A stretch of DNA of 47,702 nt, filler included, from Catajapyx aquilonaris (taxonomy: Eukaryota), in the NCBI GenBank assembly GCA_000934665.2. It is 2 parts of 2 records of this genome, joined end to end, with 100 filler letters (N's around TTAATTAATTAA, not from the genome) between each part and the next. Parts side by side here need not be neighbours in the genome. Positions count along the whole stretch, not along the records: positions 23,903 to 47,702 come from KZ539384.1; 1 more part is not named here. One strand, given 5' to 3'. Every line of letters begins with the position of its first letter. Within the stretch, counting starts at the first letter, position 1. A program made the translations under genes and the position numbers. This document shows, piece by piece, positions 23,803 through 47,702 of this stretch. The notes under the pieces are model-generated. The model saw only the letters and a program-made list of their open reading frames with translations. It did no database searches and was not told the origin of the DNA.

Positions 23803-23902
23803 NNNNNNNNNNNNNNNNNNNNNNNNNNNNNNNNNNNNNNNNNNNNTTAATTAATTAANNNNNNNNNNNNNNNNNNNNNNNNNNNNNNNNNNNNNNNNNN
23901 NN
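23803..23902. other. Artificial scaffold-joining linker (44 N, TTAATTAATTAA, 44 N)
   Basis: Symmetric, exactly 100-bp gap with a central 12-mer that places stop codons in all six frames. Confidence 0.9.
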
Positions 23903-24038
23903 TGTGTGCTGCTATTGGCAGCTAATATTTTCGATGGCGCTGAAGTGGGACATTTTACACGTCGCTGCTACGTCATCGCAAAATCACTGCTATTAATCGG
24001 CGTTATAAAACGACACTTGAAGTTGGACCACCCTGTAT

Positions 24039-24081: not shown

Positions 24082-24361
24082 TCCGGGTAGTGCTTGGCCT
24101 CTCGGCATGTAGCACGGTCCTTTATTTGTACAATGTACAGACTAAGGGGGAGTTGTTCTGTTTCTGAATTATAATTTTATTCAACACCCTGCTAGTCCTT
24201 ATTTTTATGTATGACCCAATCAAATACAGTGAAAATGAACAACAAACATGACATGAATAATTACTATGCTGAATATCACAGTGCCCATTTCTTTAGCCAT
24301 TAAGTTAATGGCCAACAAGGTTTTTTTATGGCTCTATACCATTACTTTCTAATGTCTCCAG

Positions 24362-27150
24362 CAACTTCAGCAACTACAAGGCACGATTTTCGATGCCACG
24401 CTCAGATGACAACATGCTGTACAGCTTTGATGTGGGTCCAGTGCATTTCATTGCCATCTCCACAGAGTTCTACTATTTCACAAACTACGGCATCAAGCAG
24501 ATAGTGAACCAGTATGAATGGCTTCTCAATGACCTCAAAGAAGCTCAGAAGAACAGGGCACAGAGGCCATGGATCATTGTGTTTGGACACAGGCCCATGT
24601 ATTGCTCAAATAATGACCATGATGATTGCACTCGGTATGAGACCCTCATCCGAGTTGGAATCCCCTTTTTCCACTGGTTTGGGCTGGAGAAGCTGTTTTA
24701 TGAGTATGGTGTTGATCTGGAGATCTGGGCACATGAGCATTCCTATGAAAGGATGTGGCCTGTCTACAACCGGAAGGTGTACAATGGATCAGTCGCAGAA
24801 CCATACCAGAACCCGAAGGCACCAGTTCACATTACCACTGGATCAGCCGTATGTTTTTTGCACTGTTCATTACTTACATCAAGTCTGCAAATTACACTCC
24901 CATTATAGTTGTCACTTTCAAATCTAGATGCCAGCACAACGGCTCAGAAAAGGGCAGTTAATTATGTGATCATTAGAGTCCGGATTTTTAGGCAAGAAAA
25001 AAAGTCAAATAGGCATGAAAAAAAGTAGAATAGGCACAAAAAATTTACTTTTGCAGATGTATGGAGGATAATGTTACAGAAAATTTAAAAGCTGGACAAA
25101 TTTTATAGGCCTAAAGTATAGGTCACAAACCACAGCAAAAACTGAATAACAATGATAACATTACTGACAGAAAATCACAAAACTTGGGTAAAAGACACAA
25201 CGTGCAAGCAAGTATCACTATCTTGCTTTGGACTCTACCGTTTCAGCCCGCGTTTCCACTTGCACAGTATGTTACCAAATATTTTTCTAAATTTTCCTGT
25301 GATTGGAACCGCCTTCCAGCTCATACACGTCACGGCATCATAATTCGTATTACTTTGGAAAGATTATGGTCCTTTCAGGAGCACAAACAATACTCCGCAA
25401 AGAACCAAACAAGCCTCCGAAGAAATAGGTCCGGAATAGGCCTAAGAAGTCCCGAAATTGCTTCAAAAAGTTCAAAAGCTATCCCAAAAAGGCCAAATAG
25501 GCATAAATCACAAAAACCCAAAATAGGCAAAATAGTTCCCAAAGCCATGAAATATGCAATTTAAGGCACTATAAAACCTACATTTTCTACATCCTGTACT
25601 TATAAAACAGATCTCTTCACAAAACCATCCCAACTGTAAAGGAACTATATAGGCATTTGCCTAAAAATCTGGACTTTAGTGATCATTGATAGATATTGGC
25701 CAAGGTGTTTCACGTTCCAAATCATGTTAATACTGCAGCTTCTTCCTATCTAGCAGTTTTGAGATGGATATGAAATTACTATCTATCACAAGGATAAATG
25801 AAGGTACTCTGCACTGACAAAAGCAAATGGAAGGAATAAGCAAACATAATAATAACAACAACAATAATAACCTTTGAAACCCAGTGTTATAGCAATGAAC
25901 TAACACAAACAAGTGCATGTTGTATGGTGTATCAATCCCAAACCATATCGAAGAATTCCATTTAGGGGGTTTATAACCTGCAACCTGATTTACCACAGTG
26001 TACTTGCTAACACTCTTACCAGTTATCAACATTTTCCTCTGTAATTTCAGGGTTGTCAAGAGGGCACTGATCCATTCATCCGAGTCCGTCCACCATGGAG
26101 TGCCTTCTGCAACAGTGATTATGGTTATGCTCACATGCAGGTGTTCAATAAAACCCATATGTACATGGAGCAAGTATCAGTGGATCAGGTCAGTTTGTTA
26201 CATAAAAATATGTAAAACATCATAAAAGGGACACCATATACATGGTGAAGAGAAAGTCGTGGACAATCACCAGGTAAACTTATAGCACTTGCAAAACTAA
26301 TATAGGGATATGCAATTAGTTTTTGGCTCCGTTGCGTAGTTAATGCGTACGGCACCTTTAAAGTGTCGAGGGCCAGATGGTAAAATACGAGGTAAAAATG
26401 ACAAGTGCACGGGTGTCATATCCGGATTCTTACTCTGACGGGATTTTATCACCTATTGCACGAGGACAATGTGTTAGAGGACCAAGGCAAGGGACCGGAG
26501 GCCCCCGAGCTGACTCTTGCTTCTTTGAAGCTGGCAGAACAGAAGTGACGGCATGAAACTTTGATGGCACTGCACGCATTATGCAACAGAGCCCAAAACT
26601 AATTGCACATCCTTATATTAGTTTTACAAGTACTATCAGTCTACATGGCGATTGTCCCTGAGTTTCCCTTCACCCTGTATACTCTCAAAAATGAAATGTA
26701 GATGAAGATGCCTTCTTGAATGTGAGACATTGAAGGTATTTGAATAGATCCTACTGATTCGGTGGCCAATGCAGGAATACTTTAGGTATCACTTTTACAC
26801 TTTATCTGTTTCATTTCTGTTTGTATGGTGCCTTAAGTTTTTAATGTAGTCTAGAACAGTTGCATCAGATTTTCATAAAGAGTTACTGTAAGTGTCCCAT
26901 GCACAGGACATTGACCAGCATGTCCACATCTGATGCACTGTTAGGGAAGAACTATATGGTGTTGTGGGCATTTTTGAGTCCAGTAGTCAAGCTGATGTCA
27001 TTATCTGAAACGTAGCTCAAGCCCACTGCATGGTTTCTAACATATCCATACCATTTTCAGGGTGGCAAGGTGATCGACAGCTTCATGCTGGTGAAGGACG
27101 AGCATGGTCCATATCCTCCAGTTGCAGATGATGTTGAACCTGACTTTTAA
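24362..27150 (+). CDS. ACP7: Acid phosphatase type 7 (purple acid phosphatase), 5'-partial; exons 24362-24848, 26051-26188, 27061-27150
   Basis: NFSNYKARFSMP, YSFDVGPVHFIAISTEFYYF, RPWIIVFGHRPMYCS, WAHEHSYER, HITTGSA|GCQE…DYGY. All junctions are in-frame GT-AG. Confidence 0.93.
24974..25678. mobile_element. Non-autonomous hAT-like element in ACP7 intron
   Basis: TIRs TAGAGTCCGGATTTTTAGGCAA / TTGCCTAAAAATCTGGACTTTA; 8-bp TSD GTGATCAT at 24966-24973 and 25679-25686. Confidence 0.85.
26241..26677. mobile_element. Tc1/mariner-derived MITE in ACP7 intron
   Basis: TA|CATGGTGAAG…CTTCACCCTG|TA with ~110-bp imperfect inverted arms. Confidence 0.85.
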
Positions 27151-27339: not shown

Positions 27340-29149
27340 TCATAAAATGTTGATAGCCTTTATCATTGCCTTCCCCGATTTGACTGGCATTTCAGGTTCA
27401 TTCACATGCACACATATCCTTCCCATTTCTGATCCTGTCTTCCGTCTTCTACACCCCAACTTGTGACACTGTCTGGAATGTGCCTGGAATCTCCTCAAAA
27501 GATCTGCATCTCCACCTGAAGGTCCTATTACATAATCACACCAATACTGGGGCCTCTTTAAACAACATCGCAAGTGATCAGGGTTGCTTACAAATGCATA
27601 GTTCCAGCGTTCTAATGGAAGTCCAGCAGCTCTTCGCAAGAGTCCTGTGACATACACGTCATCTATCCAAAAGTATGGCACTGTTTGGTTGAGGAGGAGC
27701 ATGGCTGTGTCAGGTGTGGTGATGTAGGCCCATCCAGATAAAAAGTCTGGATATGTTACTGCCTGAAATTCACCATGTGTCACATACCATTTGCTACTGT
27801 GGTCTCGGCGAGGGTTGAGGCCATTGTGGATGTAACCCAGTAGTAACTGATGCCTGTGAAACAGGTAATTTCAATTGTTTTAGAATTGATTTGACAATAA
27901 ACATTAGTCTTGTAACTAATGCACTTTTTAAACTACCCCTTCTATGAAAAACAATGCATGTGTTTTGAATAACCTGTCCTATCATAAAGAACAACCTGTT
28001 ATAAAGTTACACAGAAGTTGAGAATTTTTTTAAATGACGAAACACACTTGTGGGGCTATTGAAAATTGACATACAAATTTTACCAGTGATCCAATTTTCA
28101 GTTGGGTAAAATTTTCTGGGTTAGTATACGACGTAGCAATATCAGGCAGGTAAGACTACAGGTTGGTAATCAAGGCCACTCTGCCAGAGAGTTCAGGTGT
28201 GGTTAGTACTATCAAGAGCTGGTACTATTCCTTGCCACACACCTGTTTGAATACTGCTGCAGCATTTCAAGTAGCTGATACATGTCAATGGCAATGTCGT
28301 CATCCATCTTGAGCACATATGTTGCTTGTGGACAGTATGTAGTTACCCATTTCAGCCCCATCACATGTTTGTAGGTAAGGTTGCGGTAATCCTCTTCAAA
28401 ATTACCCTGATGTCAATGAAAATTCAGTTAATGATACAAAAGATCAATTTGTTACACAGATGTTGAGCCCCCAGCACATCAATCATGCAATTTGCTTCCA
28501 ATATTTGCGTAAGTTCTAGTCACCTACAATATTGTGAAATTAAAATGTGAATGTTACTGCAACATCTGGCCAGGATGCAATGATCATCATCAACGGTATG
28601 GTAGTACATATTTACTCCCAAATCTAATGGCTCATTTTTTAGATCGTCATATTATTTCAATCATAGGCATAAGCACAGTCATAAGCTTCGATAAGGCCTC
28701 AGGTTATAATAATTAGCTCCCTTTTCCTTCACCTGCACAATATCACCGTAACGTTTGCTCTCCTTCCGAATGTCTTCTTCACTGACGGCCGGGTACTCCC
28801 TACTCTCATTACGCCCAGTCCTGGCCAGCAAAAATACTCTTCTCACTTGCAGGTCCCACAGTCTATTTCCAAAATCCTTTCTGTGTGCCCGCCTGAGGGC
28901 AAAGTGGGATGCATGGGAGGTCACCAAGGCCACCAAGCTGATATTGCCTGTCCGACACACATCACTAGTAATCAAATACTTAAAGCTGTGCAGATCCAGC
29001 AGTTTCTGAACATCCCAATCCAGCGGGGAAGGCACTCTTCCCTGATTGACCTTAATAGGTGGCGGAGTCATGTATGTCCAGAGGGATAGAAGCAAAGAGC
29101 AGGAGAGGGTTATGATTAGTAATGGGGCTGCCTTAACTGTTTGGCGCAT
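27340..29149 (-). CDS. Beta-1,3-galactosyltransferase family (GT31) protein, ~364 aa; exons 29149-28733, 28406-28243, 27853-27340
   Basis: N-terminal type II TM anchor; ESKRYGDIVQ|GNFEEDYRNLTYKHVMGLKW; LKMDDD (DxD); SKWYV…YPDFLSGWAY; IDDVYVTG. Junction phases are consistent. Confidence 0.92.
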
Positions 29150-29552
29150 CGCTTATTATCGCTAACACCCTCGTCACTCGGACACAAGCAGTGGGATTGT
29201 TACTGTAACCTGCTGCATACTCAGGTAAACTTGGTCACTGCCATCTTATACCAGTCAGACTGCTTTTTTTGTGGATATTCAAACGTGGGCGGCCATGTTG
29301 AACGGAAAATGCTGAATATGTACTGTTCGCGCAGGAACAGGTGTAACGAGAGCTGATTGGTTCAAAATAACTTGTTGCCAATTGTGGCCAATCATATCTT
29401 TCACGCGTTGCAAAATCGCAGCATGTAAAAACAAGTGATAAATGCAGAATATCTCACTTCACTTCATGATCCAATATGGCTGCTTACATGTGGTAATAGT
29501 GGGCCACCAGAAAGAACCGTCTGTTTTATTTTTGCAGTGCCTGTAGTGTGAT
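29150..29552. promoter_or_regulatory. Probable bidirectional promoter between the GT31 gene and MTRES1
   Basis: ~400 bp separate the divergent start codons. YY1-like motifs GGCGGCCATGTT (~29288) and AATATGGC (~29473) face opposite ways; CCAAT boxes at ~29353 and ~29386. Confidence 0.55.
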
Positions 29553-30416: not shown

Positions 30417-32297
30417 TTTTAATTGTACCCCGTTCTCGGCGCCTAGGCCCTTTTTAGGGGTGTGGAAATACCACCATCTTTTGGAACCACGTAATATGAT
30501 ATTATTAAATTGTTCCAAGGGTAAGTAGGAGGGGATGTACAAAGTGCAAGTGCAATGTCGCATATTGGTCATTTTGTGATCTCCCCCGGGTGGATTAGTC
30601 TAGCAGAAATTTCCACCAGAGACGAAGCCAGAGATGGCCCAACTCTGCACGAGATGAAGAGGGGAACCCCGGGTTGGGTTCTAACCCGGGACCTTAACAT
30701 CCGTGGGCACACACGTTACCACAGCACCACTCTGCCTCCCCTCATGAGAGGTAAATATTGATTATTACCTGTTTCTTTGCAGGGCAGTCAACAAGATGAT
30801 ACATCCTCATCCTCATCTGACGATGAAGAGCAAAGCATTGGAAAGATTCCAGGAATGCGAGTCATGAAAACATCCTTGCCATCCCTTAGGATTGATGCAG
30901 TACTAAAATCTGGTCTTGGAACATCAAGGAAGTGCGTCACATTGTATGCATAAATTCTTTAATGCCCAGTTTGTCAATATCACTTGGGCCCATTTTCGTC
31001 AATTCCCTGGATTATATCTGGATGCAAACTGTTATTTGTTCTTACAAATCATACGTCGAGTCCCGCTCATAAAGAATGGCACGACTCTATGCAGTAGGGA
31101 ATCTAGGATTTTCAGGGGGATAAAATTTTTGGGGGTCAATGTCACGCAAGCTGAGGTTCCAAAACCTTCCCTTGCTCGAAATTTGGAAAGGGCTGAAAGA
31201 TGTGTCCTATTTTGGAGGATTTGCAGAATTCGGACTGCACATTTCTTAATCCGGACTGTACAAAGTGGGCAGATTACACTCTTAAATTAGGGCCTGTTCT
31301 ACGCTATGCTCTATGTCTATTATAATGGGAATGCATGTTGCCGTCAATATCTCGGTATGTGGAGGTAAAATTACTCCAAAAAGCACCCGTGAATTTACAA
31401 AACTTTTATTCTTCACCAGCATTGGGAAAGGAAAAAATTGTTACGTATTAACATTATAAGCATTATACATTGTAGGAGTGTAGGGACTAGAGAGAGCATG
31501 GAAGGTGGGGAGGGAGGTGCGAGTATGATGTGCGGAGAAGGGAGAAAGGCCAGATATTGATTTGTTTTTTTTTTGCGAGAAAAATATATTGAGAAAAAAG
31601 GTGCTTCCTACGGATGACATGTTTATCCAGACTCTCCAGCATTATTCCCAACCTGATTTCATTGCGACCCTATGGACAACTTGTCCTCGACCTCTGGCGA
31701 CCCGTATGACCCCATCCCTACTTTTTCTGAAATTTTTTTATTACCAAAATGTTCAACCTGGTACAATGCTTATGTAGATTTGAGATGAATTTCCCCCCTT
31801 AAATTTTCTTACTTTGCCTTGTTTTTTTCTTGATGTTAATTGCCTTTTCCCAGCCTTCGTCATGACCCCTAAAAACATGCAGGCAACTTAGGGGTTGGGA
31901 ACAGAATAAACATTTTGTCCACATAGAGTCATACCATTCTTGATAAACGGTACTGTAATTTTAATTACAGCATGTTACCTGCTGATTTACGTTGATTTTC
32001 TATCTTCACAGCAAGATTGAGGCTGCATTCTATGAGAGTCGCCTCCGTCTGAATGGCAACCGTGTCTTGAAAAAAAGTCAGCAGGTCATGGAAGGGGATG
32101 AAGTGGATCTGATCAATGGACCCAGTCACTTAAATCCCACCCAGTTCCTTGACATATCCCGCGTCCATTTAGCCTCAATAAAGCAGCCAGATGAAGAAAC
32201 TGGACGAATCCCAGCTCAACTTCACATATTTAGGAAGTTGACTGTTGAGAATTACCCAGATGCATGGAAAGTTGGAAGTCTTAGTAAAGATAGCTGA
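29553..32297 (+). CDS. MTRES1: Mitochondrial transcription rescue factor 1 homolog (S4-like RNA-binding domain), ~187 aa; exons 29553-29681, 30783-30931, 32012-32297
   Basis: Arg-rich, presequence-like N-terminus; acidic patch; SLRIDAVLKSGLGTSR|NKIEAAFYESRLRLNG…KKS…V.EGDEVDL. AATAAA at ~32342 and ~32361. Confidence 0.88.
30160..30395 (+). mobile_element. Second copy of the (TTA)n-associated repeat, nested at the tail of a SINE
   Basis: Matches 18038-18180 in reverse complement; ends in GTGATGATGA(TTA)n. Confidence 0.75.
30400..30741 (-). mobile_element. tRNA-derived SINE (family B) in MTRES1 intron 1
   Basis: Minus strand starts GGGGAGGCAGAGTGGTGCTGTGG (A box) with GGTTAGAACCC (B-box variant) and ends in a (TAAA)n tail. 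Imperfect TSD TGAGAG(C/G)TAAATATT at 30122-30136 and 30745-30759. Confidence 0.8.
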
Positions 32298-32423: not shown

Positions 32424-35400
32424 AAAAAAAAAAGAGACCCACATTTCCTTTTTTCAGCTCTCCAATAAATATATTGCCTTGCCCATTTAGAAACAGTTTT
32501 CTATGAAAATAAATTACCAGAGCAAGTTTAGGTGCAAAAACTGTGCCCTTTGTAATGTCTATAATTTAAAAGAGGACGTAAAACTATTCAACAAGATTTG
32601 TGAAGAGGAATAGCTTCCTCCAGTTTGCATGGGGCAGACTAAAAAGATTCAAGAAGACAACACCGGAAGTAAACAAGCATAAGTGAGGGAAAAACAATGA
32701 TGACCATTTAGCCATCGTAATGATGAGTGATTCCAGGATTGTTATTTGTACAAGTGTAGGAAGTTCACTTTTTTTGCTTGCTTGCTTGCATTTAACAATA
32801 CTGCCACATAATTTGCTTTTGTCAACAACAGGTACAAGTGTCAAGTCTACATCTATGTACAATTTTTGCCTGAGAATATTTTAAACCCCCATCCTGTCAT
32901 GTGTAAGTAGAACTATTATTACATTGACATGATTGCATTCAAAGTGTTATTAGTTACTTGCCTAGTTGATCTCTACACTTGCCATTTATAATGCCTGATT
33001 CTTTCAAGATGAATCTCCATTTTGAAGTTCTGGCAAAACCAACTGGCTGAAAGCACCTGTATCTACTATGCAGTTTGAGCAGCGCATTCATACCAGCCAA
33101 AATACCAAAATAATCCCACCTCTTTTCACATAAAAGCATTACACAAGAAAGCGGTTCCTTAGGCCCAGTTGTACGAACACAAATTACAGAGAGAATCCCT
33201 GATTTTGTACAATGGATATTATGCATAATGAGATTTGTCCTTAATTTGCTTTAATACAACCAGCCCTTAGTGTCAACACAACAACAATAGCAACAGTTAA
33301 TCCATCTGAAATTTGAAAAAAGAACAAAAAATCTATAATTATTAGATATGCTTGTTTTGCACAACCTCATGCCAAACCCAAAGAAAAGTGAAGATCGTGT
33401 TATCATTACTCTAGAAAGCCATTCTACTGTCATATTTCTACACCTTGACAAGTTTTCCTGCGAAAAACCCATTTCCCTCTTTTCCACACAAAACTATACT
33501 CACTCTGGGATGGCAGCACTGATCATTACACCTTTGAAAGGTGACCAGTGGCGTTTTAAATGCTAGATAATCGTAGCATAGGCCTGCATATTCCCACCTG
33601 AAGAATTTGTTGTTCCAAGTACATTAAAATAAATGAGTAACATGATGGTATGCCTGTACAAGGATGATGAAACTGGATAATGAAAATCAGTCTAAATATG
33701 TCAATGTTTGCTACACATCTTCCTTTCCCCATCAAGTTAACATGCAACGCTTACTTCCATATTTTAAAATTTCTCCCCACTTAGGGGGGACAAAGATCCT
33801 GCAGCCAACATAGGTCCCCCCATAAGAAAATCGGCATTCGTCAATAAAACACTCAAGAAAGAATTTGAATTTTTGAAGAGCCACTTGAGGACCCTCCTAG
33901 CCCATTAGGTGGGTATGGACCAAACTTTGGGAACCACAGCTCAATGGTGATCAAATGTGACAATCATGCTCCTAATACGGAGCCTCACAGGGAAGATATT
34001 CCCAAGGAATCAATCTGTTAATAAGTTAGTGCATTCCATTATTATTATTCTTGGTCACAAGCTGCTGTTTGTTTTCTTTGCATAAGCTCTCTGCACTCTG
34101 AAGCATGCAACAACAATTTGAATGGTGCCAAAACACATTAATAATTCATTACATCAAGCATAATCCCAGAAATGGGGTAGCCAGCAAGGACTAGTGTGTA
34201 CACCTAGCCATTAATAATTGTATATTTTAGGTGATAGGGGCAATTTTCCATCATACTAAAGGTAATCCTGTGTGATTCCTCCTCATATATCTGGGGCACA
34301 ACGTCCATATGAAACACCCTGAATAATAAAACTGACTGGAAAATTACTTCTGCGTTTTCAATGAAATCCTTGTTTGTACTGCAAGTCATAATATATTATC
34401 CCATTAGGGTGCATAAAAATGTCCTGGAACAACCACTTCTTCAAATTACATGCTGTCCATTTCCAACTTTTGGTAGCACCTGCCTACCATACCTAAAGCA
34501 TGAAAACCTTTCCTCTGTGGGATATCACAGTTAACACTTCCTTCATATTAGTTGTTCAAATAAATGCCTTTGGTTGATTATAGCAAGTTTAAAAACTCAT
34601 TCAATCTGCATAAATTGTTTGGTGGTAAATACACCTGGATCCTTCTCAAGAGCAGTAACAAAGATGGATCCTCAATCACTCCAACACTACAAGATAGTTT
34701 GGAGGTTTGCAGGACAATATGTAAGATGCATTGTCCAAGGCAGAATGTGATTACTAATTGCTGCATTTCACGGGTTTTGCACCATCCTTTACTTCACTAT
34801 GTCACAACTGCATTTATTACTATATAATTATTATGCACATATTTTATTATGCAACTCATCTTGTTCTCCTTAAAAATTGCAGTGATGTAGTGATGGAGGG
34901 ATCCCATTTGTCACTTTCTGAAATCTGACAGTACTCCCATGAAATATTGCATGGATTAATTCAGGACCAGATGCTAACAAGTAGGGGTGGACATGGAGGG
35001 ACGGAGTGCAACTCTGCAGGCACAAGAATTACTGAATCGAGTCTCTGCAATTTACACATTATTTACTAGATGAGGTACCACATATTGCCCAAGAAAAAGT
35101 AAGCCTGATGCAATTTAAGGCAGAGGTACAGTATATGTTGAGTGCAATGACCAAGTAAGGTAAATTCTCAAGGCACCCATGAGGTACTCAATAGACCATG
35201 TTTGCATTGGGCTGCCATAAACTAGGTGATTACAGGCAACAGTTTCTTGTGCAAGTAGCTGCTGCAGATTTTGTCTGAAGGCGTATCACCTTTGCTTGTT
35301 TCTTACATCCTCCCTTTTTATCTTGCTTGCATGATATCCAAAATGGTGCTGCCCAAAGTAAACTAAAAGTTAGAGGCAAATGAGGTTATTGCATAATATG

Positions 35401-36079
35401 TTTTGATATTCTGTGAGCAGCTGCCAGCCATCTCATCACCTAGTAAAGTTCATTATCATCAACACAATCATCCACGTTCATCACCTAGTTTGTGGCCAGT
35501 TTAATGCTGTAGGAGGGTGCCATGGTGCTAAGGCAAAATTTGCACCAACAATACCAAAAGGCCCAATTTCACACACATGCTTTCCCTTTCTACACCCTCA
35601 AGGTAGAATTCAGATACCTCCCATCTGTCTTCGTTGGAAATTTTACTGATAATCCACACATGGAAAACTCACAAATGCAAAGTAGAGCTCATCACCTGCA
35701 TGTGCAACTCCCATCCAAGTGGCCTGTCACTATAAGGAAGGTCCAAAAGGTACGCTTGTAGCAAATAAAGGTCCGTGCCATATGCCGCAAATGGGGCAGT
35801 GCACTACCCATTATCATAATCACTGTCATTATTACTACCCATGCACTACACGTTATCATTATTATTATTATTATTATTAGTGCACATCTCTATGACACTT
35901 CCTTCCCTTTTAGCACAATGTGGTATCTGGAGTACTGCAGCCAGGGCTTATTGCATTTTATCACACTTATGCAGACTGAAAGAGTAGCTTTTCATTTGAA
36001 CAACTTAGACACTCCACAAACCCTCCTACATATTTTACACTCCCACATACTTTTTTAAAAAACCAGTTAAAACTATTAG

Positions 36080-36877
36080 TCAATGGACTTTGGTCCTAAT
36101 AAATTGTGTCTTATATCTAACCTTCCCTTTGCCCGTCCCAGCTCCTACTCTCCTACGTTCCTCCTTCCCCCCACATGCACAGGTAGCCCCCTCATCATTC
36201 TTCCTTTTTGCACTGCACTGCTTCTTTATAAACCGTCCACAAAATTTGCATCTGGATGATAAAACCCTGGCAACCTCTGGTTTTTTCTTGTCTTTTCCAT
36301 GCACATTATTTAGGTGCCGCTTCACATTTCCTTTAATGGCAAATTGTTGGGGACACAAAGGACACAAATATGTCTTGATGCCAGTGTGAATCCACTGATG
36401 TTCTTTGCATTTTACACGTGTGCGGAACACTTTTGGGCACAGTTCACACCTAATTATTGCCTTTGAGTCTGGATCTGGTGCTTCTGGTTTTCTTCGACCA
36501 TTCTTGCTACCTGCCTTGCTCCTCTTTGGCTTAGGCTTCACCTTCAGCTTCTTTTTGACCTTCAAAGTTGTCTTTTTTTTGCTGCTCTTTGCCTTCTTCC
36601 TATCAGCTTCTTCACTTCCCCGTCCTCGTATGATGATTCGCTTAGCAACACTCCCCCCAAATAGCCGGGGTTCAAACTCCCACACTGGGATGCCACCTTC
36701 AGAACAAATGTCTGGAAGGGGGAGGTAAACCATGGCCAGCTGGTTTGACAGGAATAGATGATGGCTATTGGGTCCGTTTGGGATGATGACTGAAGCACTG
36801 CTGCTTTCTGAAGACTGCTTGTGACAGGCATTGCTGTGGTGTCTGTCTGGGTGCATTGCCCGGGGGAAGCCAGTCAT
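36080..36877 (-). CDS. C2H2 zinc-finger protein (two canonical fingers, Lys-rich NLS-like region); start uncertain
   Basis: CELCPKVFRTRVKCKEHQWIH-TGIKTY-LCPLCPQQFAIKGNVKRHLNNVH; splice acceptor TTTTATTAG| at 36897 upstream of the ATG. Confidence 0.8.
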   Translation of the reverse strand: MTGFPRAMHPDRHHSNACHKQSSESSSASVIIPNGPNSHHLFLSNQLAMVYLPLPDICSEGGIPVWEFEPRLFGGSVAKRIIIRGRGSEEADRKKAKSSKKKTTLKVKKKLKVKPKPKRSKAGSKNGRRKPEAPDPDSKAIIRCELCPKVFRTRVKCKEHQWIHTGIKTYLCPLCPQQFAIKGNVKRHLNNVHGKDKKKPEVARVLSSRCKFCGRFIKKQCSAKRKNDEGATCACGGKEERRRVGAGTGKGKVRYKTQFIRTKVH

Positions 36878-37190
36878 GCCGTAGAATTAGGACACCCTAA
36901 TAAAAGAAGCACAAGGTTAAGATTGCTAAAAATTTAATGTACAGATGTCAATTCAAATAACCAAAGTATGATGCAAAATCACCCCTTATTCATGTTAATT
37001 GCAGAGAGCTGCAAACACCTTTAATTCATGCCATGTTCACAACTGGACAACTCAAAAGAGGTCTTCATTTAAAATGTCTAGTTGTAAAATGCAACCAACA
37101 AATTTGGATTTAAAAATTTTCTTCATTTATATTATGGAGAATCCATCACATGCACCTTTATTAATAGCAACTTAATGGATATTCAAGTAC

Positions 37191-37547
37191 GGGGAGGTGT
37201 AGATGGCCGAGATAGTAACGTCTCGGCTTGCTGAGTGAAAGGCCCCAGGTTCGATCCCCGCCTGGGGAACTTTCCTTTCACCTGCGTCAGGAGGGTCTCT
37301 GACCTGCACCAAGGAGGTGTCTGGCAACCTAACCTCCTGGGGAACAGCACATGACCCCTTTACCGACATTGCACTTGCACCACATGTTCCCTCCTCAAAA
37401 ATCCCTATCCCTACCCATGTCCTTGTCTCCTTGCACCGGAGTCAGAAGAAAAATAGTACACAGTTACTAGAAAACTGATGGTGGTGTGCCACCCCCCTAA
37501 AAAGGCTCCGCCTTATCACGGGGTAACGTAAAAAAAAAAAAAAAAAA
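37191..37547 (+). mobile_element. tRNA-derived SINE (family A), full length
   Basis: GGGGAGGTGTAGATGGCCGAGATAG (A box), GGTTCGATCCC (B box), poly(A) tail; perfect 14-bp TSD GGATATTCAAGTAC at 37177-37190 and 37548-37561. Confidence 0.92.
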
Positions 37548-37560
37548 GGATATTCAAGTA

Positions 37561-37704
37561 CAGTAGACTCCAGATATAACAAGACTCCAATGGACCACGG
37601 AAATCAGTCTGTTATAGCCAAATACACATGACCCTTATGGAAATATGGCAGGACCAGCCTTTTGAGTCTGCTATAGCAGAGGCTGTTATATCCGGAGTCA
37701 ACTG
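37561..37704. mobile_element. Tigger/pogo-type MITE
   Basis: TA|CAGTAGACTCCAGATATAAC…GTTATATCCGGAGTCAACTG|TA. Confidence 0.8.
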
Positions 37705-37885
37705 TATTACATTTCAACAGATGCTGGTTAGTACTTAAAAAACTGTCACACAAAATTGTATGAAGAGTACGAGTGTTAATTTCACCTGGAAAAGGGTACA
37801 ACAGACTGTTAGCCACAAATTTAATTTCATGAGGTATGCTCATTTAGCCCCCATGCAAGAATTATTGAGAAATTAAAAGCTGTTA

Positions 37886-38135
37886 CAATGGGTCCTCCGT
37901 ATCCATGGGGGATTGGTTACAGGGAGCCTATGGATACCAAATTCACGGACACTCAAATCTCCTACATAAAATGGCAGTGTTTGAATATAACCTGTGCACA
38001 TCCTATTGTATACTATAGATTATACTCATAATACCTAATAAAATCCTAATGATATGAAAAGAGCTGTTGTACTGTATTGGATAGTGCTTGGCATGTTGCA
38101 AATTGAAGTTTTGCTTTTGAAACTTTGGATTGTTT
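37886..38135 (+). mobile_element. Tigger-derived MITE fragment resembling MER2/MER2B
   Basis: TA|CAATGGGTCCTCCGTATCCATGGGGGATTGGTTACAGG…GGATACCAAATTCACGGA…ATAAAATGGC…ATATAACCT…ATAATACCTAATA…GCAAATTGAAGTTTTGCTTTT. The similarity is to the consensus as I recall it, not computed. Confidence 0.65.
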
Positions 38136-41100
38136 TATTTCATTTACCAGCCAGATAGCCATAGTTGCTTGGGCTTCTTCCTAATAAACTTAAACTTAAC
38201 TTAGCTCACATTTGTATAACTCTCATGGACGCTAACTTTGCTTTGACTTACACATGTAATTGGAAAGCCCATTTAAAGGTGTTTCCAACAGCCTGCATGA
38301 CTCCACTCCAAATTTGAAGGTAATGTCACAGAGGGGAGTGGAAATTATTGTCTGCAAGCGTTTTACTGATGCAGACAGGAGATAACTTATGAAATATGTA
38401 GCATGTGCAACAGGCAATTGCATCTGCATATGTAACAGTGTAAATCCATACATACCTTTATAATATGTAATCGAAGTTGCAACTTGACAAACCTTGTGAT
38501 AACTTTGGAGTTTTATGTCATATGTTGGCATAACGATGCCACATTTTTCTGATATACTTTTTTCCACACTTCCAACAGATGGTGTGGAAAAAATGGGAAC
38601 AACAATTGCAATTTCTGCAACTTTTGCATTACAAATGTGTAACTTTCAAGTGGTGCAATGTTTCTCTCAGCAGACAGGACTACACTTTGAAATTATACGA
38701 GTATACTAAAACTCTTTGTGGTAAGCTACCTTAATATGCATATGGTTTGAAATGCACACCCCATAATTATCTAGTATTCTAGTTCCATTCACTCAATGGT
38801 TTTGGATTGTTTATAACTGATAACCAAACATTCCTGGCATCACCTGTCAAGCACTTTCTGAACAATACAAACGAGCATGTGACTTGCTATCTCTTTAATG
38901 TGGCATACCACCATGTGCTCTCTTTCATTTCCTAAGCACAAACTATCTATTTCCTCTAACTTCACATAGGAAAGAGTCATACACCAACAGACCTGGTATG
39001 CACGGCACAGATCTTCCAGAAAAGACCATGTGTTCCAGAGTTACACCAAGAGTGGTTACACTCAACACTTCCAATCCCACCTCAAATGTGGCAGCTCCAG
39101 AGCTCCTTCGCCATGTTGCTGGTGGTATGTCATGAATTATATTGCAATGCCAAAGAAATGTGTGTAGGGGGCCCATTCAACTGCCACTGGCTAAGCCCTG
39201 CATTTCTAATGCTGCTGCAACAGACAACTGCAGCCCTCACTTGCCAATCTGCAGCACTCCTGTTTTTGTGTACAAGGAGCCATGAAAAATAAAGCAACTG
39301 ATTAGTTTCCAATCCTGCATTACTCAACAATTAAAATCTGTCTAGAATTAAGTAGCAATGTCCTTTCTGATACACCCTGCACGCGAACATATTTTCATTT
39401 CATTTTCCGCCTCTCCAATCCACTTTTGACATGTTACTTTACATAAAGTTTGCCTCAACACACCTGGCTTAAAGTACACTAAACTTGAACAAACACCCTA
39501 TATGCAAAGAACAATACTATATTTATAACACACAAGCTCCCCGCTTCAAACGAACAATCAATATTTAGACCGCAAAGCAGTCCATAATTTTTGAAAAACC
39601 CTCCCACTATTAGCACATACCATAATCCACACCAGTCATTTAAAAAAACACCCTCCACAATAAATGATATTTAACTACCCTGCACTTGACCCAATTTCTT
39701 CATCCTAGCTCGTCCCCCACTTCCCAAGGCTAAGTGCGTGACCCTGGACGAAAATCTATACCATTTTTTTCCCCCCACAATCAATACACGCACTACTGCC
39801 TATTTACCCATAGCGACGATAAATCCGTCCAAGTCCGCCACCAACATGACCTCGACACAGGTGCTTGCGGAGTTACATAACCTTCCCAGCCGTTCAAGGC
39901 GGGATGTCGGGGTAGGCACAGACATCGGGGTAGCAAAAAGAAACTCACTGATGCACACATAAAATAAAATAAAAAGTTTAAAAGGGGGGTAGAAAGGCAA
40001 AATATTGAACAAGGTCAACGCAACCGATTCTGCGTCGCAGCTAGGCCTAGGCACAGGCATCCCCCCCAACCAGTCCACCTCTCTGCTCTCTCCCGCCCTC
40101 CACCTTCATTCAAGTCCTTCCCTTTCCGCCCCCGATACGAACCTACTAGGTCGGGAGACATGAGATGCCCCCCGAAGGAACGGGTGTCCGAGGTCACGGG
40201 GTGGCATTATCCACCGTATCTGAGGTGGGGGGGGTACCGTATTTGATGAAGGTGGGCAGGGTGGGTAGGTGCAGAGCGCACTTCTCTTGGCTCCCTCTGC
40301 CTCCAATCACAGTTACCAACTCAGTGACGGCCTTCGATTTATGCGGTTCATGGGGCACGGAAATTATGTTTACCCGATACTTTTGCATCTATCGGACGAG
40401 TGGGTATACAGTACGGCGCGGAGTGGCTAGGAAATGCAGGCAAGGCGCAAGTCGGAAAATTAAAGGCCGAATGGATTTTACATTATTTAGATGATTCCAC
40501 GTTGTTTACAGTACCGGTAGTTAAAAGGGCATGTAATAATAAAGCAAATGGTTCCGATTTTTTAGTTACGTAGGCGGACATTGAAAGACACGCCCTTTCC
40601 CCCCACCTACTATATAACTGAAACCGGATTATATAATAATGGAAACTTGAGCTGTACGGAACGTCAATTTAGTCCGATGTTCTATCACATTTATTATCGT
40701 GTGTTGCCGAATTTATTTCCGTATACCGACACAGATGTAAGCTTAATTCTGAAACACACTGTTCAGTACGAAAAATTGGTGGAACAGACACGTAGTATTA
40801 CATCACTCAAGCATACTGAAATTGGACCTCGAGGTCAAGGTTATACCACGTTATACACTATGAGAAGAGCGTCATGTAGACAGTTTAAAAATTACGAAAT
40901 CGCTCTTGGTTCTTTAATCTGGTTGTTTACCATCGGACTTATCAGCTTGTAAATTATTATCCGATAGCAGCATAAAATAATTATGAATAACATTTAATAT
41001 CATGAAGACTCCGGTTGTTGTATTGCCTCACTTATCATGTAGCTTATCATAATGACATCGTTACAAATAGCACCACTATAAATCGTTGCTACACACCGAG

Positions 41101-41612
41101 TATAGGGCCTACAGTGCTTTTTTTTTTTTACAAGGACGATGCGACAACTATTTTTTGTTCTAAAATGTTTCGCTTTCTTGCCCGTAAAATGGTGAGGTTG
41201 TTGCTCTTACGCTCTTACATACCCTCACAAAAAATATAGGTTCTTGTCCTTTACAAGGTGTACGGCAAATCTCCTTGACTCAGGAAGGCAAGGGAAAGAA
41301 AAAGAAGAAGAAAAAAACAACGCAAAATCCATGAAGCGAGACCTTCGCACGAGAATGAGGTTTATTAACCCCCTATATGCAATGACGGGATTTTAAAAGG
41401 GACTAGATTTATTAAAGTCATCATCATCATCTTTGTAAGTTATCTATATGGGGGCTGAGAGATCATGCCCTTTAAAAAAAAAGGTCATCTGCTTCCAATC
41501 CTACACTTATGCTTATGCTCCAGTCTCAGACAGGTCACACGCAAGTCAGTAATCCAGATAGACACAATAATGAGCATTTTAACCGTAACATTTACATCGT
41601 TATAGGAATTTG

Positions 41613-44483
41613 ATGGACAGGGCAACAATGATGAAGTTCGCTGCCCTCATATTTGTATTCTTCCTGTGCCATGCATCCCGCGGGTGTGTGTTTGATGAGA
41701 CAACGGTGCAAAGGATGATGGATGCAGTGAATACGGAAAACATCCGGGAAAACCTGAGGTTTCTGGCTTCTCAGCCACATTTGGCAGGTACACCACGGGA
41801 TGATGAACTGGTACAGTACATCAAAGGTCTGTTCGAGGAGGCTGGATTAGACACTGTGGAGACCACTCCATATGAGGTCATGCTGTCTCACCCGGATTTT
41901 GATAAACCCAACCAGGAAAGTATAGCTTGGGTACCACTTTTCGTACCATAACTTGAAGCTGTTACATTTGCAGGTACATTTGGTGGATGAGAATGGAAAT
42001 TTGATAAGCAACAGCTCGTTCAAAGAGCATATTTATAATGAGACGGAGGACTCGGCCAATTTTGTTCCTGCGTACCATTGCTTTTCACCTGCAGGGGACA
42101 TCACCGGTGACATCGTGTTTGCTAACTATGGGAGACAAGAAGACTTCGACAGGTTGAGGGATATGGATGTGGAAGTAAATGGCAAAATATGTATCATAAA
42201 ACTCGGGAAAATATTCAGAGGCAGCAAGGTATGAGTAGGCTACAGAACATTGTGTTGACTGGTCTTATCCGGTAATAATCTGCGCAGGTAGCAGCAGCTG
42301 CTCAAAACGGAGCTATCGGAGTATTGTTGTATCCAGATCCTGCAGACTATGCAGCTGAAGGTACCGAGGAGGAAAATGTGTACCCTAACAAGTGGTGGCT
42401 ACCCGGCTCGGCTATGCAAAGAGGCAGTGTATATGGCAGTTGGGGTGATCCATTGACCCCCGGATGGCCTTCTATAGGTAGTACTAAGGACATGGTACAT
42501 GCCTGACCGCAATTCAATAATTCACAATTTTGTTTCAAGCTGGGGCTATTCGATTGAATGAATCAGACGTGGAGCATATTCCGAATATTCCAGCCCAGCC
42601 TATAGGATACGACGATGCAAAGCGAATTCTCGAGTAAGGTACACAATAAGAGGATTGAGGCTACGCGTAACTACATCCGATTACTACACTTTATAAAGGT
42701 TAATGGGAGGGGAGCAGGTGCCGCATGAATGGAACGGAGCTGTTCCGGGCGTGGAATACCGTCTGGGGCCAGGGTTCATACACCCTCACAACACCACGCA
42801 GGTGCGACTGGTTGTCAACAACATTCTCAAGTACAATGTCACGATCGAAAACGTCATAGGAATGATTAAAGGAGCTGTCGAACCAGGTACGTCTTCAGAA
42901 AGACACCCAACATGTGTCGTTTAATCAAATTGGTATTGCAGATCGGTACGTGATATATGGTAACCACCGTGATTCTTGGGGATTCGGCGCTGCGGATGCT
43001 GTCAGTGGTACTACCGGTCTCTTGGAGGCGGTCCGGATTTTTGGAGACATGAAACGGCAGGGATGTAGGCCTCGTCGTACCATCATCTTCTGCAGTTTTG
43101 GAGCTGAGGAAGTACCGCTCTTTGGCTCCACTGAGTGGGTAGAGGTAAGTCACAAATGGTGTGCTGTATACCAGAGTGTTGATGTCGTCCTTTAGGAAAA
43201 TCTGGCTCAGTTGGACCGTCGCGGTGTGGCCATGGTGAACCTCGACACCTGCATGGGTGGACCTGCTTTCAGGCCGAAAGTCTCGCCTTTTCTATGGACC
43301 TCGTTCCTCGAAGCAATGCGACAGATCCAGGACGGTATGGACGCAAACAGGACCTTGTACGAGGCATGGGCTAGCACATTTCCCGAGAACCAGGAACCGG
43401 AGCTGGAGCTCCTCAAAATGATGAGTGACCACGTGGCTTTCGATTCGTTTGTCGGCATACCATCCATCACCTTCCGGTACTTTCCGGACGACGTTCTTTC
43501 CGGAAACTATCCCGCATACCACACGGGATATGACACGATTAGATATGTGGAAAAATTTCTCGACCCAGAATACCAGTACATGGCATCGTGTGCCAAATTG
43601 TCCGTCGTTTTTCTCGCCAATTTAGCAGGTTTGAGTACTAGATTGTAGTTACACGTACTGCACGTATTGGCACAAAATCTGCCGGAAAAAACACTCAACC
43701 GTACATGACTTACCTGTCCAATAATTCAGGATTGAAGCTATAGCCTACATTTTGCTTTTTCAGACTCACCCCTCGTGCCATTAGATTCACGTAGAGCTGC
43801 ATTGAAAATGAGGAACACAATACAATCGATGAAAACGAACGGTGTCGAGGCGGAACTAAACAAGCATGATGCTTCCATAGGTATAGTCTGCGTCAATATT
43901 GCTCTACCTGCATAATTCAAACCCCTGACCCCAACTTGATTGCAGATTCGCTAGGAGATACCGTCGACAGGTTTGTGACGGCCGCTGAACGCTGGCATGA
44001 GAATGCTGCAAAATTAATCAACTCTAACAAGTGAGTCGCAGTAGTTATGCGTATATATACAAATACAATACAAATCAGATCCGGATATATCGGACTCACC
44101 TTTCCAGCACTCTGATTGTCCGTATGCTGAGCGATCAGTCTATGTCGGTTCAGAAAGCTTTCCTCTTACCTGAAGGACTACCTGGAAGACCTCTGGCCAG
44201 GTAATTAATCGACAACCGAATTCTGGGCTTATTGTAATTTAATTGATATTCCAGAAACGCGGTGTTTTCGATGGGCCAACACGACCTGTACAATTCCCAT
44301 GCCTTTCCCGGAATCAAAGACCTTCTACACGGCATCGACAAGCTGGACCCAGATAAGAAGATATTGAGGGAAAACCAGCTTCAGAAACACATCTCTGACC
44401 TGCTGGTTGTAGTACATCGGGCTAGTCTGTTGCTCTCTTTGGATCACATACCTTCCGATTGGTTTCCGCCACAGGATGAATAA
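41613..44483 (+). CDS. Glutamate carboxypeptidase II / NAALADase-like M28B peptidase, ~729 aa; exons 41613-41915, 41974-42228, 42288-42477, 42540-42633, 42699-42886, 42942-43144, 43196-43628, 43764-43880, 43946-44030, 44108-44200, 44255-44483
   Basis: [59 protein letters not shown]…[29 protein letters not shown]. All junctions are in frame; nine of ten are canonical GT-AG. Confidence 0.93.
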
Positions 44484-45195
44484 AGTGATCAATCATAACA
44501 ATATTAGACAACAATGTAGCAAATAATGCTTCGCTATACGGAATAAAAATATATATTATATTTATATACCGTTTTTTGTTTTGTTTGTAGTGCAGGCGTT
44601 CTTGCAATGGTTTTGTTGGGTGGATGGGGTATGGGGACATTGAACTTTGTAAACTCCGGCCCTCCATCCAAGTTGTGCGGCCCGGTCCAGTGCGTAAATA
44701 TTTGCAGCGGCCTCGACATAATTTGCGACATGGAGACTGGAATGAGCAATGTGTACACCTGGGGAAATGGTTTGTCCGCAGGATCGGGGCGTCGCGCCGC
44801 GTCGCGCGGTGACCTATAGGTCTGGGACACGGTCTGGGACAACTGTGACGCCTGACGCGGTTAGGCATGTAGCATTATTTTGGGGACGTAAATAGCGAAG
44901 TTTCGACGGGTGTTCAGTAAGCGTATTACTTGTGCGGTACTGTACAGTACACTATACAGCATTGTCGTATGTTATACGCTTATGTATGTATATGGTGGGT
45001 TTGTCGGGATTCCCATAAACTTATGCCATTGACAATAAAATATTTCCGGCTGATAGGTCTGGACGCGCTGAAAAACCTACTAACCGTATGGCAGGCTAGC
45101 TTTTACTTTTGTACCCTATACCGGTACCTTGCCGGTACTGAACCTTACCAGTACGTACCCTACAGTGCGTGCCACACAGGTATGGGCCTACTAGT

Positions 45196-45339
45196 CTATC
45201 GGGTTCAAATACTTTTGGCCACTTTATCCTGGTCTTGAAGCAACCCTTCGCACAGACCCCACGTTAAGGAGGCGAGTGTGTGTGACGGGTTCCTTCAAGA
45301 CCAGGATATAAAGTGGCCAAAAGTATTTGAACCCGATAG
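45196..45339. mobile_element. Short palindromic MITE
   Basis: CTATCGGGTTCAAATACTTTTGGCCACTTTAT..CCTGGTCTTGAAG and its reverse complement form ~50-60-bp arms around a short spacer. Confidence 0.8.
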
Positions 45340-45703
45340 TATGATAGGCCTACCACATCTCCCATGTTGAATTTTCCAAGAAGAAAAAGTGGATTGCCAA
45401 CTATCTACCTGAATTTGCCTAGAACTCATGGAGATACAACTTAATTTAATTTAAATAAATAAATAAAACACTGATGACACACTACAAATTATGTTGATGG
45501 AATTTAATCCGCGGCATCTATACGCTGTGCTATACCTATATTACACCTCTATATGTTACCAAGATGTTACGCTATACGAGAGCCACGAGAGCTATCGCGC
45601 AATATACCGCGCCATACTGTGAGCAAGGGGCCTCTGTCGGCCGAGCGAGCATTTATTTCCACTTATCCGTGGGTTGGAAACAGGGAAATCGACTCATCTT
45701 CTC

Positions 45704-45790
45704 TACAGTATAGAACCCCGATGGCCCCGATTATTCGTCACCCACGGGACTGGGACATCGTCGGATAACCGAAAACGTCGGATAATAATC
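45704..45790 (+). mobile_element. Tigger/pogo-like TIR fragment
   Basis: TACAGTATAGAACCCCGAT…CCCCGATTATTCG…CGGATAA motifs resemble Tigger-like ends; no partner end found. Confidence 0.4.
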
Positions 45791-46123
45791 CAAGGAGTAA
45801 AATAAAACTTTTATGAACCACAACAAAAAGCATAAAAACATGAAAGGGCCTACAATATTATGGTTTTTTTTCAGAATAAATAGTGAAGTATTTTTCTGTA
45901 TACTTCACACACACCCACCTACCCCCCCCCCCCACACACACACACACTACCCGTACTGCATTTGAAGACCTAGGGAGAAAAAACGATCAAGGTCCATCTC
46001 ATATATGTGAAACTGAGATATTGCAATTTCAAATTTTGAAGACCCACCACAATTCTTGTGTATAGGTATACATCCCAAAGTTGGTTTGAAACTTTGAAAG
46101 TCTTTATTAATGGTAGGCTACAT

Positions 46124-46409
46124 CGAGGGGTCTGTGCCAGAGGGGCGTAAGTGACTTTTGGCGAAATCGGTTCTCTTTTGTGTTGCACAGCAAACAGTGG
46201 GTCCAATCTTGTGCCAAAGAGGCGCATATGCACAGGAGTTAGTTCCCGCCATTTTCCGCTGCTCCACATAGGCGGTAGTGACTGGTTCTGGAAACTCATT
46301 TTTCCAAAGGGGCGCATATACCACATACGCCTCTCTGGCACAATGCATGCTACATGCGCCCCTCTGGCACAATGCATGCTACATGCGCCCCTCTGGCACA
46401 GACCCCTCG
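46124..46409. mobile_element. Non-autonomous TIR element with 4-bp TSD (Sola-like?)
   Basis: Perfect 24-bp TIR CGAGGGGTCTGTGCCAGAGGGGCG, flanked by ACAT on both sides (46120-46123, 46410-46413); internal 28-bp tandem copies of the TIR motif. Confidence 0.8.
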
Positions 46410-47702
46410 ACATAATACCATGAGGCACATGCAACAATTAAAACCAATATTGTTGTCAGCATCGGTATCTTTATTAATCAACATCAGTACCACATGTGGC
46501 AAAGGGCAGGTCCACATAAAAATGTCGAATGTCGATAACCCCGGGGTATCAATAATGGCACGAGCTGGTGCTGTTGTTGCTGCTGCAAGTCATTGAATTT
46601 TTCATTTGCGAAATTGGCAGTCACCCTGGATACATCTCACGAGACTGACCGAAAGGTACTTAGGTTCATACTACATGCCTCTTCACACCAATCGACAATT
46701 CCCACGGCCCATCAAAAGTGTTCCTGAGAAAGATGAGCTTGATTGGGTTTGCTTTCAAGGAACTTCCACTCTATCTCTGCTTTTCTGAATAGGAAATGGG
46801 AATTTGGAGACATAGAGTTTTTGTAGGTATGTAATGTAGTGTAGGTCTTAAACATGTCCTGCTCACATTGAATTACGCAAACAGGATTCGACTTTCGACG
46901 TGCATCTGCAAAAATCTTGGCCTAATCAGAAGGAACAATAATAATTGTTTCAGAACATTATTATTGGTATATCAAGCCAAAATCTTTGCCTCACTCCATG
47001 TTTAACTGTGTCCTCTAATAAATGTCACTTGGATTTGTTAGAAACCTATGTACTATTGACCGCAAAAGTAATGTCGCGACTGTTTATGTGCTTTTGTGTT
47101 TATGTGTTGGTAATCCTGGGCGCTGCCAGGCTACGGATATGTTTATTTGGCGATGTTCCGGAATCCACAACACCCTGCTCACCGGTCACGGCCGCGGTCC
47201 CTCGGTCGCACAGTCCCGCAAGTGGCCGCACGGTCTGGGTCGCTGTTTGAGAGCGCCGCTACTATTCGTGCAACTTATTTCTAGTTTGGGTAATTCCATG
47301 TGAGATCATACAAAGATGTTCACCCGACTTTTTTTCTTTTTTCTTAGAAAATCGAAATTTGGCACTTAGGGTCGTATTTTGTCAAGATCACAGGGACATA
47401 TCTTTCAAACCAGATAACCGCTATAGGTCACGAGAAATGAAGAGGTCAAAAATGGGAACTTTTCCATTCTGATGTTTACAATAACCCGATAATTTCTCTA
47501 ATTATGTGTCCCACATGCATGCAAAATGGGGCTTTAAATTCTATACAAGGTAACGCCGAACCCGCAGATAACCTCCAAAAAAATTTTAAGATTAAAATTA
47601 CGTGTCATTTTGGGAGATCATATCCCCTTCAGTAGTGCAAGTTTCATTTTGGCCCTCGTATTAGGGTCCGAGATATCAAAATATCAAATACAGTAAATAA
47701 GG

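Follow-up and report, generated by a model that had tools for sequence, protein, structure and literature searches.

Does an intron of this animal gene begin with GA instead of GT? The question is raised by a gene for a glutamate carboxypeptidase II (GCPII)/NAALADase-like protein in Catajapyx aquilonaris (assembly GCA_000934665.2). The gene lies on the + strand of a DNA stretch of 47,702 nucleotides (nt), which comprises two parts joined by filler letters; we call this whole stretch the window, and all positions count along it (positions 23,903 to 47,702 come from record KZ539384.1). Exon 1 of the gene ends in ...GAT AAA CCC AAC CAG, with its last base at 41915, and is followed by G41916, A41917, and AAGT, that is, by the animal donor consensus CAG|GTAAGT except at intron position +2. 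A sequence-only reading of the window had proposed that a GA-AG intron is spliced out at this point. That reading is now backed by homology and by a contig piece boundary and read depths from a sequencing run, which fit only the proposed join. We consider it very probable that intron 1 (41916-41973) is a genuine U2-type intron with a GA donor and that it is constitutively removed. GA-AG introns are a rare but already described kind, and intron 1 is a further natural case.

Five sequencing runs contain the stretch. Runs X1 to X4 are DNA runs from 2014, made from one sample that is possibly the source of the assembly, and X5 is a run from 2022 that belongs to another sample and another study. 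The kind of run X5 is not recorded, and its RNA nature was judged from its spliced contigs. X5, X1, and X4 were aligned to positions 33000-47702, all in the form of Logan contigs.

Sequence of intron 1 and its borders

The elements of intron 1 are given below by position and strand.

41913..41921, + strand: 5' splice site CAG|GAAAGT, with eight of nine consensus matches; the sole departure is A, not T, at +2.
41916..41973, + strand: intron 1, 58 nt, GA-AG, phase 0, 40% G+C; its removal was deduced from the start of an X5 contig piece at 41971 and from depth arithmetic.
41931..41932, + strand: unused in-phase GT, TGG|GTACCA, with 4/9 consensus matches.
41949..41952, + strand: TAAC branch-point-like motif with its branch A at 41951, the single TRAY motif that a motif scan found in intron 1.
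41966..41973, + strand: 3' splice site ATTTGCAG, then GTA, placed by the sequence and the gene model.

The acceptor reads TTGCAG|GTACAT at 41973/41974, and exon 2 opens with GTA CAT TTG GTG GAT. Every coordinate of the sequence-only reading (the CAG|GAAAGT donor, the start of exon 2 at 41974, and the 58-nt intron) agrees with the sequence. Intron 1 falls within the definition of a GA-AG intron, since it opens with G and A (+1 and +2) and closes with AG. Because CAG|G is present at both intron borders, the cut is formally movable by up to three bases to the left or one to the right. The shifted cuts would give GG..CA, AG..GC, CA..TG, and AA..GG, and the sole placement with G at +1 and a terminal AG is GA..AG; the shifted placements are less plausible.

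Retention of intron 1 leads, as had been claimed, to a stop, namely an in-frame TAA at 41949-41951, 11 codons on, and the splice is therefore obligatory. The first three letters of the TAAC motif are this same TAA. The branch A of the motif lies 22 nt from the 3' splice site, and TAAC is the candidate branch point of intron 1.

The surroundings of the GA are those of a strong donor. AG stands at -2/-1 and A at +3, and the +1 G, which the chemistry of splicing needs, is intact. With 8/9 matches the site ties for the best of the gene's 10 donors; the nine GT donors match the consensus at five to eight positions, and none at all nine. The duplex predicted between the site and a U1 5'-end motif that does not come from this organism has an energy of -9.3 kcal/mol, the second best among the 10 donors. 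Both strands counted, the window has a single copy of the 9-mer CAGGAAAGT; by our own arithmetic, chance would give about 0.4. As a motif alone it is thus unremarkable; what goes beyond chance is its location, at precisely the place where homology and reading frame demand the end of an exon.

The sequence-only reading had named a GT at 41931 as the only in-phase GT alternative, with a 43-nt intron and an insertion of the residues ESIAW. This GT, its intron length, and its insertion were borne out, but a further in-frame alternative, a GC-AG join, had been overlooked: a donor at 41925 (ATA|GCTTGG, 2/9 consensus matches) that would leave a 49-nt intron and insert ESI.

RNA and DNA contigs across intron 1

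Run X5 behaves as RNA: in record 21, a contig of 1126 nt at depth 96.5, five GT..AG introns of 51, 135, 65, 77, and 54 nt are skipped, and these five skips are absent from the DNA runs X1 and X4. The 5' part of the gene is covered by X5 record 20 (1021 nt, depth 7.49), of which one piece, at record positions 524-779, corresponds to 41971-42226. This piece begins three letters ahead of exon 2, with a CAG that is identical to the end of exon 1, and it stops two letters before exon 2 does, in keeping with the AG that is common to the next acceptor. After a join from GT-41931 or GC-41925, the letters before GTACAT would be TGG or ATA, respectively, and the piece could not extend to 41971.

The depths of X5 provided a second line of evidence. 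With the piece as an anchor and the length of the record fixed, each splicing model gives a number of covered bases, and hence a depth, for each depth bin. The values below are for the bins 41347-41837, 41838-42328, and 42329-42819, in that order.

Observed X5 depth: 2.55, 5.71, 5.55.
GA-AG model (167, 374, and 364 bases): 2.55, 5.71, 5.55.
GT-41931 model: 2.32, 5.93, 5.55.
Retention model: 1.66, 6.59, 5.55.

In the next three bins, where records 20 and 21 are mixed, the predicted depths are 45.79, 69.97, and 57.98, versus observed depths of 45.8, 70, and 58. The depth arithmetic leaves no X5 cover within intron 1. The evidence is strong but indirect that an X5 RNA contig runs over 41671-41915, leaves out 58 bases, and resumes in exon 2. 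The junction is likewise assigned indirectly to RNA and not to DNA, by the piece start at 41971, by the fit of all six bins, and by the retention of the intron in the DNA contigs. Use of the GT at 41931, which the sequence-only reading had named as an outcome that would speak against it, does not fit the contig boundary or the depths.

At the DNA level, two contigs of 7544 nt, record 4 of X1 (depth 30.7) and record 11 of X4 (depth 18.7), agree with the window letter for letter and without a gap over 37680-45223. Since both contigs match throughout, independently of the genome assembly, A at 41917 and intron 1 are present in DNA. The base at 41917, which was to be checked, is A and not T in the contigs of both runs. 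A base-call error, one of the causes first suggested for the GA, is therefore disfavored, as two DNA runs that were re-assembled independently read A, albeit from the possible source sample of the assembly. X1 and X4 exclude a consensus error, not a private allele.

The depth of the X5 contigs differs 13-fold within the gene, from 7.49 at the 5' side (41671-42990) to 96.5 at the 3' side (43036-44542), and records 20 and 21 break apart in exon 6, between 42990 and 43036. The library may have a 3' bias, transcription may start internally, or the RNA may be partly degraded.

Homology across the exon 1-exon 2 junction

Comparison with known proteins places the junction where the GA-AG splice puts it. 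In the alignment with human GCPII, numbered as in 9hlw, the Q that closes exon 1 corresponds to Y127 and the V that opens exon 2 to I128, without a gap; with NAALADL1, the same two residues correspond to V119 and V120, again without a gap. We extended the comparison to 151 homologues, consisting of 150 representatives found with exon 2 and one Sarcoptes protein, of which 103 gave a BLASTP match that spanned the junction and extended 10 or more residues to both sides of it. The product of the GA-AG splice scored higher than the ESIAW product of the GT-41931 splice for 92 of the 103, equally for 2, and lower for 9. Alignments were gapless within 8 residues of the junction for 37/103 homologues with the GA-AG product, versus 1/102 with the ESIAW product.

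The difference was clearest among the 27 homologues in which a P-N pair is aligned to P94-N95. Over residues 90-106, 21 of these were gapless with the GA-AG product and none with the ESIAW product, and 24 of the 27 showed exactly one 5-residue gap opposite ESIAW. An alignment of orthologs around this PN had been proposed as a check; the alignment of these homologues speaks for the GA-AG join. We also enumerated all in-frame, stop-free joins between 41800 and 42060 that have G[T/C/A/G]-AG or AT-AC ends (n = 179). The GA-AG join of 41916-41973 ranked first, with 3833 bits summed over the 30 best homologues; the runners-up were GC-AG from 41925 (3702 bits) and GT-AG from 41931 (3680 bits).

Gene structure and predicted product

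The gene model was built by joining open segments at their best splice sites. The model as a whole and its first two exons are as follows.

41628..44483, + strand: gene model with 11 coding exons, 724 amino acids, and 10 introns (1 GA-AG and 9 GT-AG), based on the open frame and on five GT..AG joints in X5 record 21.
41628..41915, + strand: coding exon 1, with a hydrophobic N terminus and the end ...DKPNQ, based on the open reading frame (ORF), on phmmer matches to human GCPII and NAALADL1, and on inferred cover by X5 record 20 from 41671.
41974..42228, + strand: coding exon 2 (VHLVDENG...FRGSK), based on a phmmer match to human GCPII (E = 6e-15) and on the X5 record 20 piece 41971-42226.

An in-frame ATG at 41613 is an alternative start that would add five residues. 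The introns measure, in order, 58, 59, 62, 65, 55, 51, 135, 65, 77, and 54 nt, the first being GA-AG and the nine others GT-AG. The nine GT-AG introns have the sizes given by the sequence-only reading (51 to 77 nt, with one of 135 nt), and intron 1 lies within their range.

By its sequence, the protein belongs to the glutamate carboxypeptidase II/NAALADase family (peptidase M28B). The top solved-structure matches of four exons are human GCPII, GCPIII, and NAALADL1 (PDB), and searches with single exons found the Pfam domains PA (E = 4e-5), Peptidase_M28 (E = 3e-11), and TFR_dimer (E = 0.003, which falls below the Pfam cutoff on its short exon) in the expected order. The positions H377, D387, E424, E425, D453, and H553, which we take to be the zinc ligands and catalytic Glu in human numbering, are identical in the alignments to human GCPII and GCPIII, as derived from the 9hlw ranges 370-436 and 437-579. 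The metal and catalytic residues of a glutamate carboxypeptidase thus appear to be kept.

A search with exon 2 gave 1229 representative homologues at E <= 0.001, with a top identity of 61% across a 56-residue stretch (P0025); by these identities, the exon seems to have no close relative among the 1229 matches. The named proteins among the 10 top matches were from crayfish, clam, sea anemone, abalone, and salmon louse, at identities of about 40 to 51%. In the protein collection searched, no longer homologous protein was reached through exon 2 and only one, from Sarcoptes, through exon 7; neither an annotated protein of the gene itself nor a protein from the X5 contigs was present in that collection. 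A metagenome scan with the end of exon 1 gave no match. An Rfam scan of the window found no family and hence no small nuclear RNA gene there.

Proposed mechanism of splicing

The donor CAG|G-AAGT is otherwise entirely consensus, and its pairing with the U1 5' end could be strong enough despite the mismatch at +2. The later pairing with U6 and U5 would likewise tolerate this single mismatch. With the +1 G intact, the intron would be completed by a CAG acceptor and a branch-like TAAC motif of ordinary type. Joining 41915 to 41974 yields an uninterrupted 724-amino-acid GCPII/NAALADase-like protein.

Alternative explanations

Several points weigh against a constitutively spliced GA donor. The evidence from the sequencing runs consists of Logan contigs and not of raw reads; these show presence, not proportions, and minor isoforms are invisible in them. 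The support from RNA is indirect, consisting of one piece boundary and depth arithmetic and not of junction reads seen directly: the joint from 41915 to 41974, like all five joints of record 20 (canonical ones included), is not among the joints listed. The +2 base of the animal that gave the X5 RNA is unseen, since the intron is absent from its contigs, and X1 and X4 were both made from the possible source sample of the assembly and do not provide an independent genotype. The U1 duplex energies do not use the U1 of this organism. In the homology comparison, 9 of the 103 homologues slightly favor the ESIAW product, and the GA-AG product itself aligns without gaps near the junction to no more than 37 of the 103, in a loop that varies in distant members.

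Of the rival explanations, a recent splice mutation survives best. This possibility had been raised by the sequence-only reading, and we kept it as a rival, although we consider it quite unlikely. The reference animal would carry a private or polymorphic T>A change, with a disabling A at +2, and the X5 RNA would come from animals with the GT allele. Such a situation would agree with the unseen +2 base in X5 and with the origin of both DNA runs from one sample; a very recent null allele would, moreover, still leave the 724-amino-acid frame intact elsewhere. Five of six +2T>A changes tested in human minigenes gave aberrant transcripts only (excerpt of PMC12805630). However, the remainder of the donor is perfect consensus. 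Because not one of the nine GT donors in the gene matches at all nine positions, a random T>A hit on so strong a site is improbable, and the near-perfect rest of the site argues for a working, compensated donor. Working GA donors are reported to require exactly such a context (PMC5714493 and the excerpt of PMC7072748). In addition, no other letter occurs at 41917 in X1 or X4, whose 7544-nt contigs are unbroken, and the X5 pieces listed show zero differences from the reference, so that the RNA animal must be genetically very close. The related suggestion that the lineage tolerates GA donors holds at least for the site of intron 1.

It is very unlikely that the GA-AG intron is an artefact, that is, that A at 41917 is an error or that the junction arose by template switching or by contig misjoining at the 4-nt CAGG repeat. 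The CAG|G at both donor and acceptor is a microhomology of the kind that can yield false noncanonical introns, template switching is raised as a possibility in the excerpt of PMC7072748, and the evidence comes from contigs only. Against these points, both DNA runs, re-assembled from raw reads, read A at depths of 30.7 and 18.7. The deletion exactly restores the frame and gapless homology, while the unspliced form runs into a stop. What the assembler kept is the joined form, with no X5 cover in the intron, and template-switch products are rare. A CAG|G at both borders is also normal for an ordinary exon-exon junction.

Use of a canonical donor, either GT-41931 or GC-41925, has a negligible probability. 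Both joins are in frame and stop-free and hold ranks 2 and 3 among the 179, and the spliceosome normally needs GT or GC. Both are nevertheless very poor sites (4/9 and 2/9). The depths of 2.32 and 5.93 for GT-41931 miss the observed 2.55 and 5.71, as do those for GC-41925 (about 2.41 and 5.84 by our own arithmetic). With either donor the exon 2 piece would not reach back across CAG to 41971, and ESIAW lies opposite a 5-residue gap in 24 of the 27 P-N homologues.

Three further candidates were rejected. A U12-type intron would have an RTATCCTT donor box and a TCCTTAAC branch site; the donor GAAAGTATAG lacks the former, and the sole branch-like motif of intron 1 is TAAC, with no TCCTTAAC. A-to-I editing of the +2 base was ruled out by reasoning, as it would give GG and not GT. 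A donor GT at 41920 (AAA|GTATAG) shifts the frame with the acceptor at 41973, and with its only in-frame partner, the AG at 42025, it loses conserved residues and ranks low among the 179 joins.

Other features of the window

Very high-copy repeats flank the NAALADase-like gene (36928-38400 and 44784-47702); in X1 their contig depth sums rise to about 212,000, where the baseline is about 30. Near 37274, a loose-end consensus includes GGTTCGATCCC, whose resemblance to a tRNA B box suggests a tRNA-derived short interspersed element. Further features are listed below by position and strand.

21659-23041, - strand: intact ORF of 461 amino acids with DDE_1 (E = 3e-17) and HTH_psq domains, predicted to be a pogo/Tigger-like transposase that may still be active.
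24350-24851, + strand: single recognizable purple-acid-phosphatase-like exon (Metallophos, E = 5e-8) with the donor GCC|GTATGT; two assembly gaps, the N runs 23803-23846 and 23859-23902, lie close to the upstream part of the gene, and the downstream exons of the gene were not found.
27343-29150, - strand: beta-1,3-galactosyltransferase-like gene with three exons (Pfam Galactosyl_T, E = 1e-9) and two introns that are GT-AG by eye (CAG|GTGAAG and CAG|GTGTGT).
31986-32294, + strand: exon for an MTRES1 C-terminal domain (E = 3e-12).
36083-36886, - strand: C2H2 zinc-finger ORF of 268 amino acids, under an unspliced X5 contig at 36108-36898.

X5 contigs also lie over 33000-34890 and 34894-35640 without skips, and no long ORF with a Pfam match was found in 33000-35640. 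This cover may represent a long untranslated region, a noncoding transcript, or carry-over of DNA in the run.

Significance for annotation and splicing

The main value of the finding lies in annotation. Most RNA-seq mappers, and gene predictors too, do not accept GA as a donor, and the gene would be broken by a predictor confined to GT and GC. The expected mis-annotations of the NAALADase-like gene are the loss of exon 1, a false insertion of ESIAW, or a call as a pseudogene. For biology, the donor adds to the natural cases which show that a base other than T or C can occupy +2, given an optimal sequence at the remaining eight positions.

The finding would carry more weight if such donors were common genome-wide in the lineage. 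C. aquilonaris is neither Eurytemora nor Oikopleura, and its major spliceosome might accept G-only donors more widely, with GA (and GG) introns forming a regular, mis-annotated minority. We regard this wider use as unlikely. Among the 12 introns that we read in the window (10 in the NAALADase-like gene and 2 in the galactosyltransferase-like gene), 1 is GA, and the window was picked for that intron. If true, wider use of G-only donors would provide a third independent lineage for testing how recognition of +2 relaxed.

Comparison with known GA donors

GA-AG junctions are reported at low frequency across animals (excerpt of PMC7072748), and among 222,263 human introns 14 GA donors were counted (PMC5714493, citing Parada 2014). 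As in the rare human GA-AG introns of FGFR1-3 and ITPR1 (Parada 2014, excerpt of PMC4176328), a U2-like consensus surrounds the GA donor of intron 1. The human FGFR site is described, in the excerpts of PMC7072748 and PMC4176328, as alternative and as dependent on a canonical GT 6 nt upstream. Unlike that site, the donor of intron 1 has no GT in the 6 nt upstream (AACCAG), and removal of the intron is needed for any open frame. We therefore rejected a "parasitic" GA donor of the FGFR type.

A functional parallel at a single site is ATM c.6347+2T>A, where a GA donor in a strong context was usable by an ordinary animal spliceosome: in a human minigene it gave 12% full-length transcript, and five other +2T>A changes gave none (excerpt of PMC12805630). 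The ATM site is leaky and mostly mis-spliced, whereas the spliced form of intron 1 was recovered in RNA contigs, which give no measure of efficiency.

Oikopleura dioica is a tunicate that is not known to have a minor spliceosome, and its GA-AG introns have been accounted for by a permissive spliceosome. Intron 1 resembles these introns in being short and in having its GA donor between an upstream AG and a downstream A, flanks that the GA-AG sites of O. dioica and Eurytemora affinis share (Frey and Pucker 2020, excerpt of PMC7072748).

The common use of GA donors in E. affinis, which the sequence-only reading had stated, is correct (Robertson 2017, PMC5714493). There, the GA and GG donors have an obligate upstream AG and nearly always an A at +3, and they are constitutive, with no helper site; many genes of E. 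affinis are mis-annotated owing to GA donors (PMC5714493). GA and GG introns make up about 10 to 12% of the introns in the sampled genes of E. affinis, where they were seemingly gained recently, and the count here is 1 GA among the 12 introns read. In its other properties, intron 1 is like the GA/GG introns of E. affinis: it is constitutive by our reading and needed for the full-length protein, and it combines an upstream AG, an A at +3, and an ordinary AG acceptor with no helper GT nearby.

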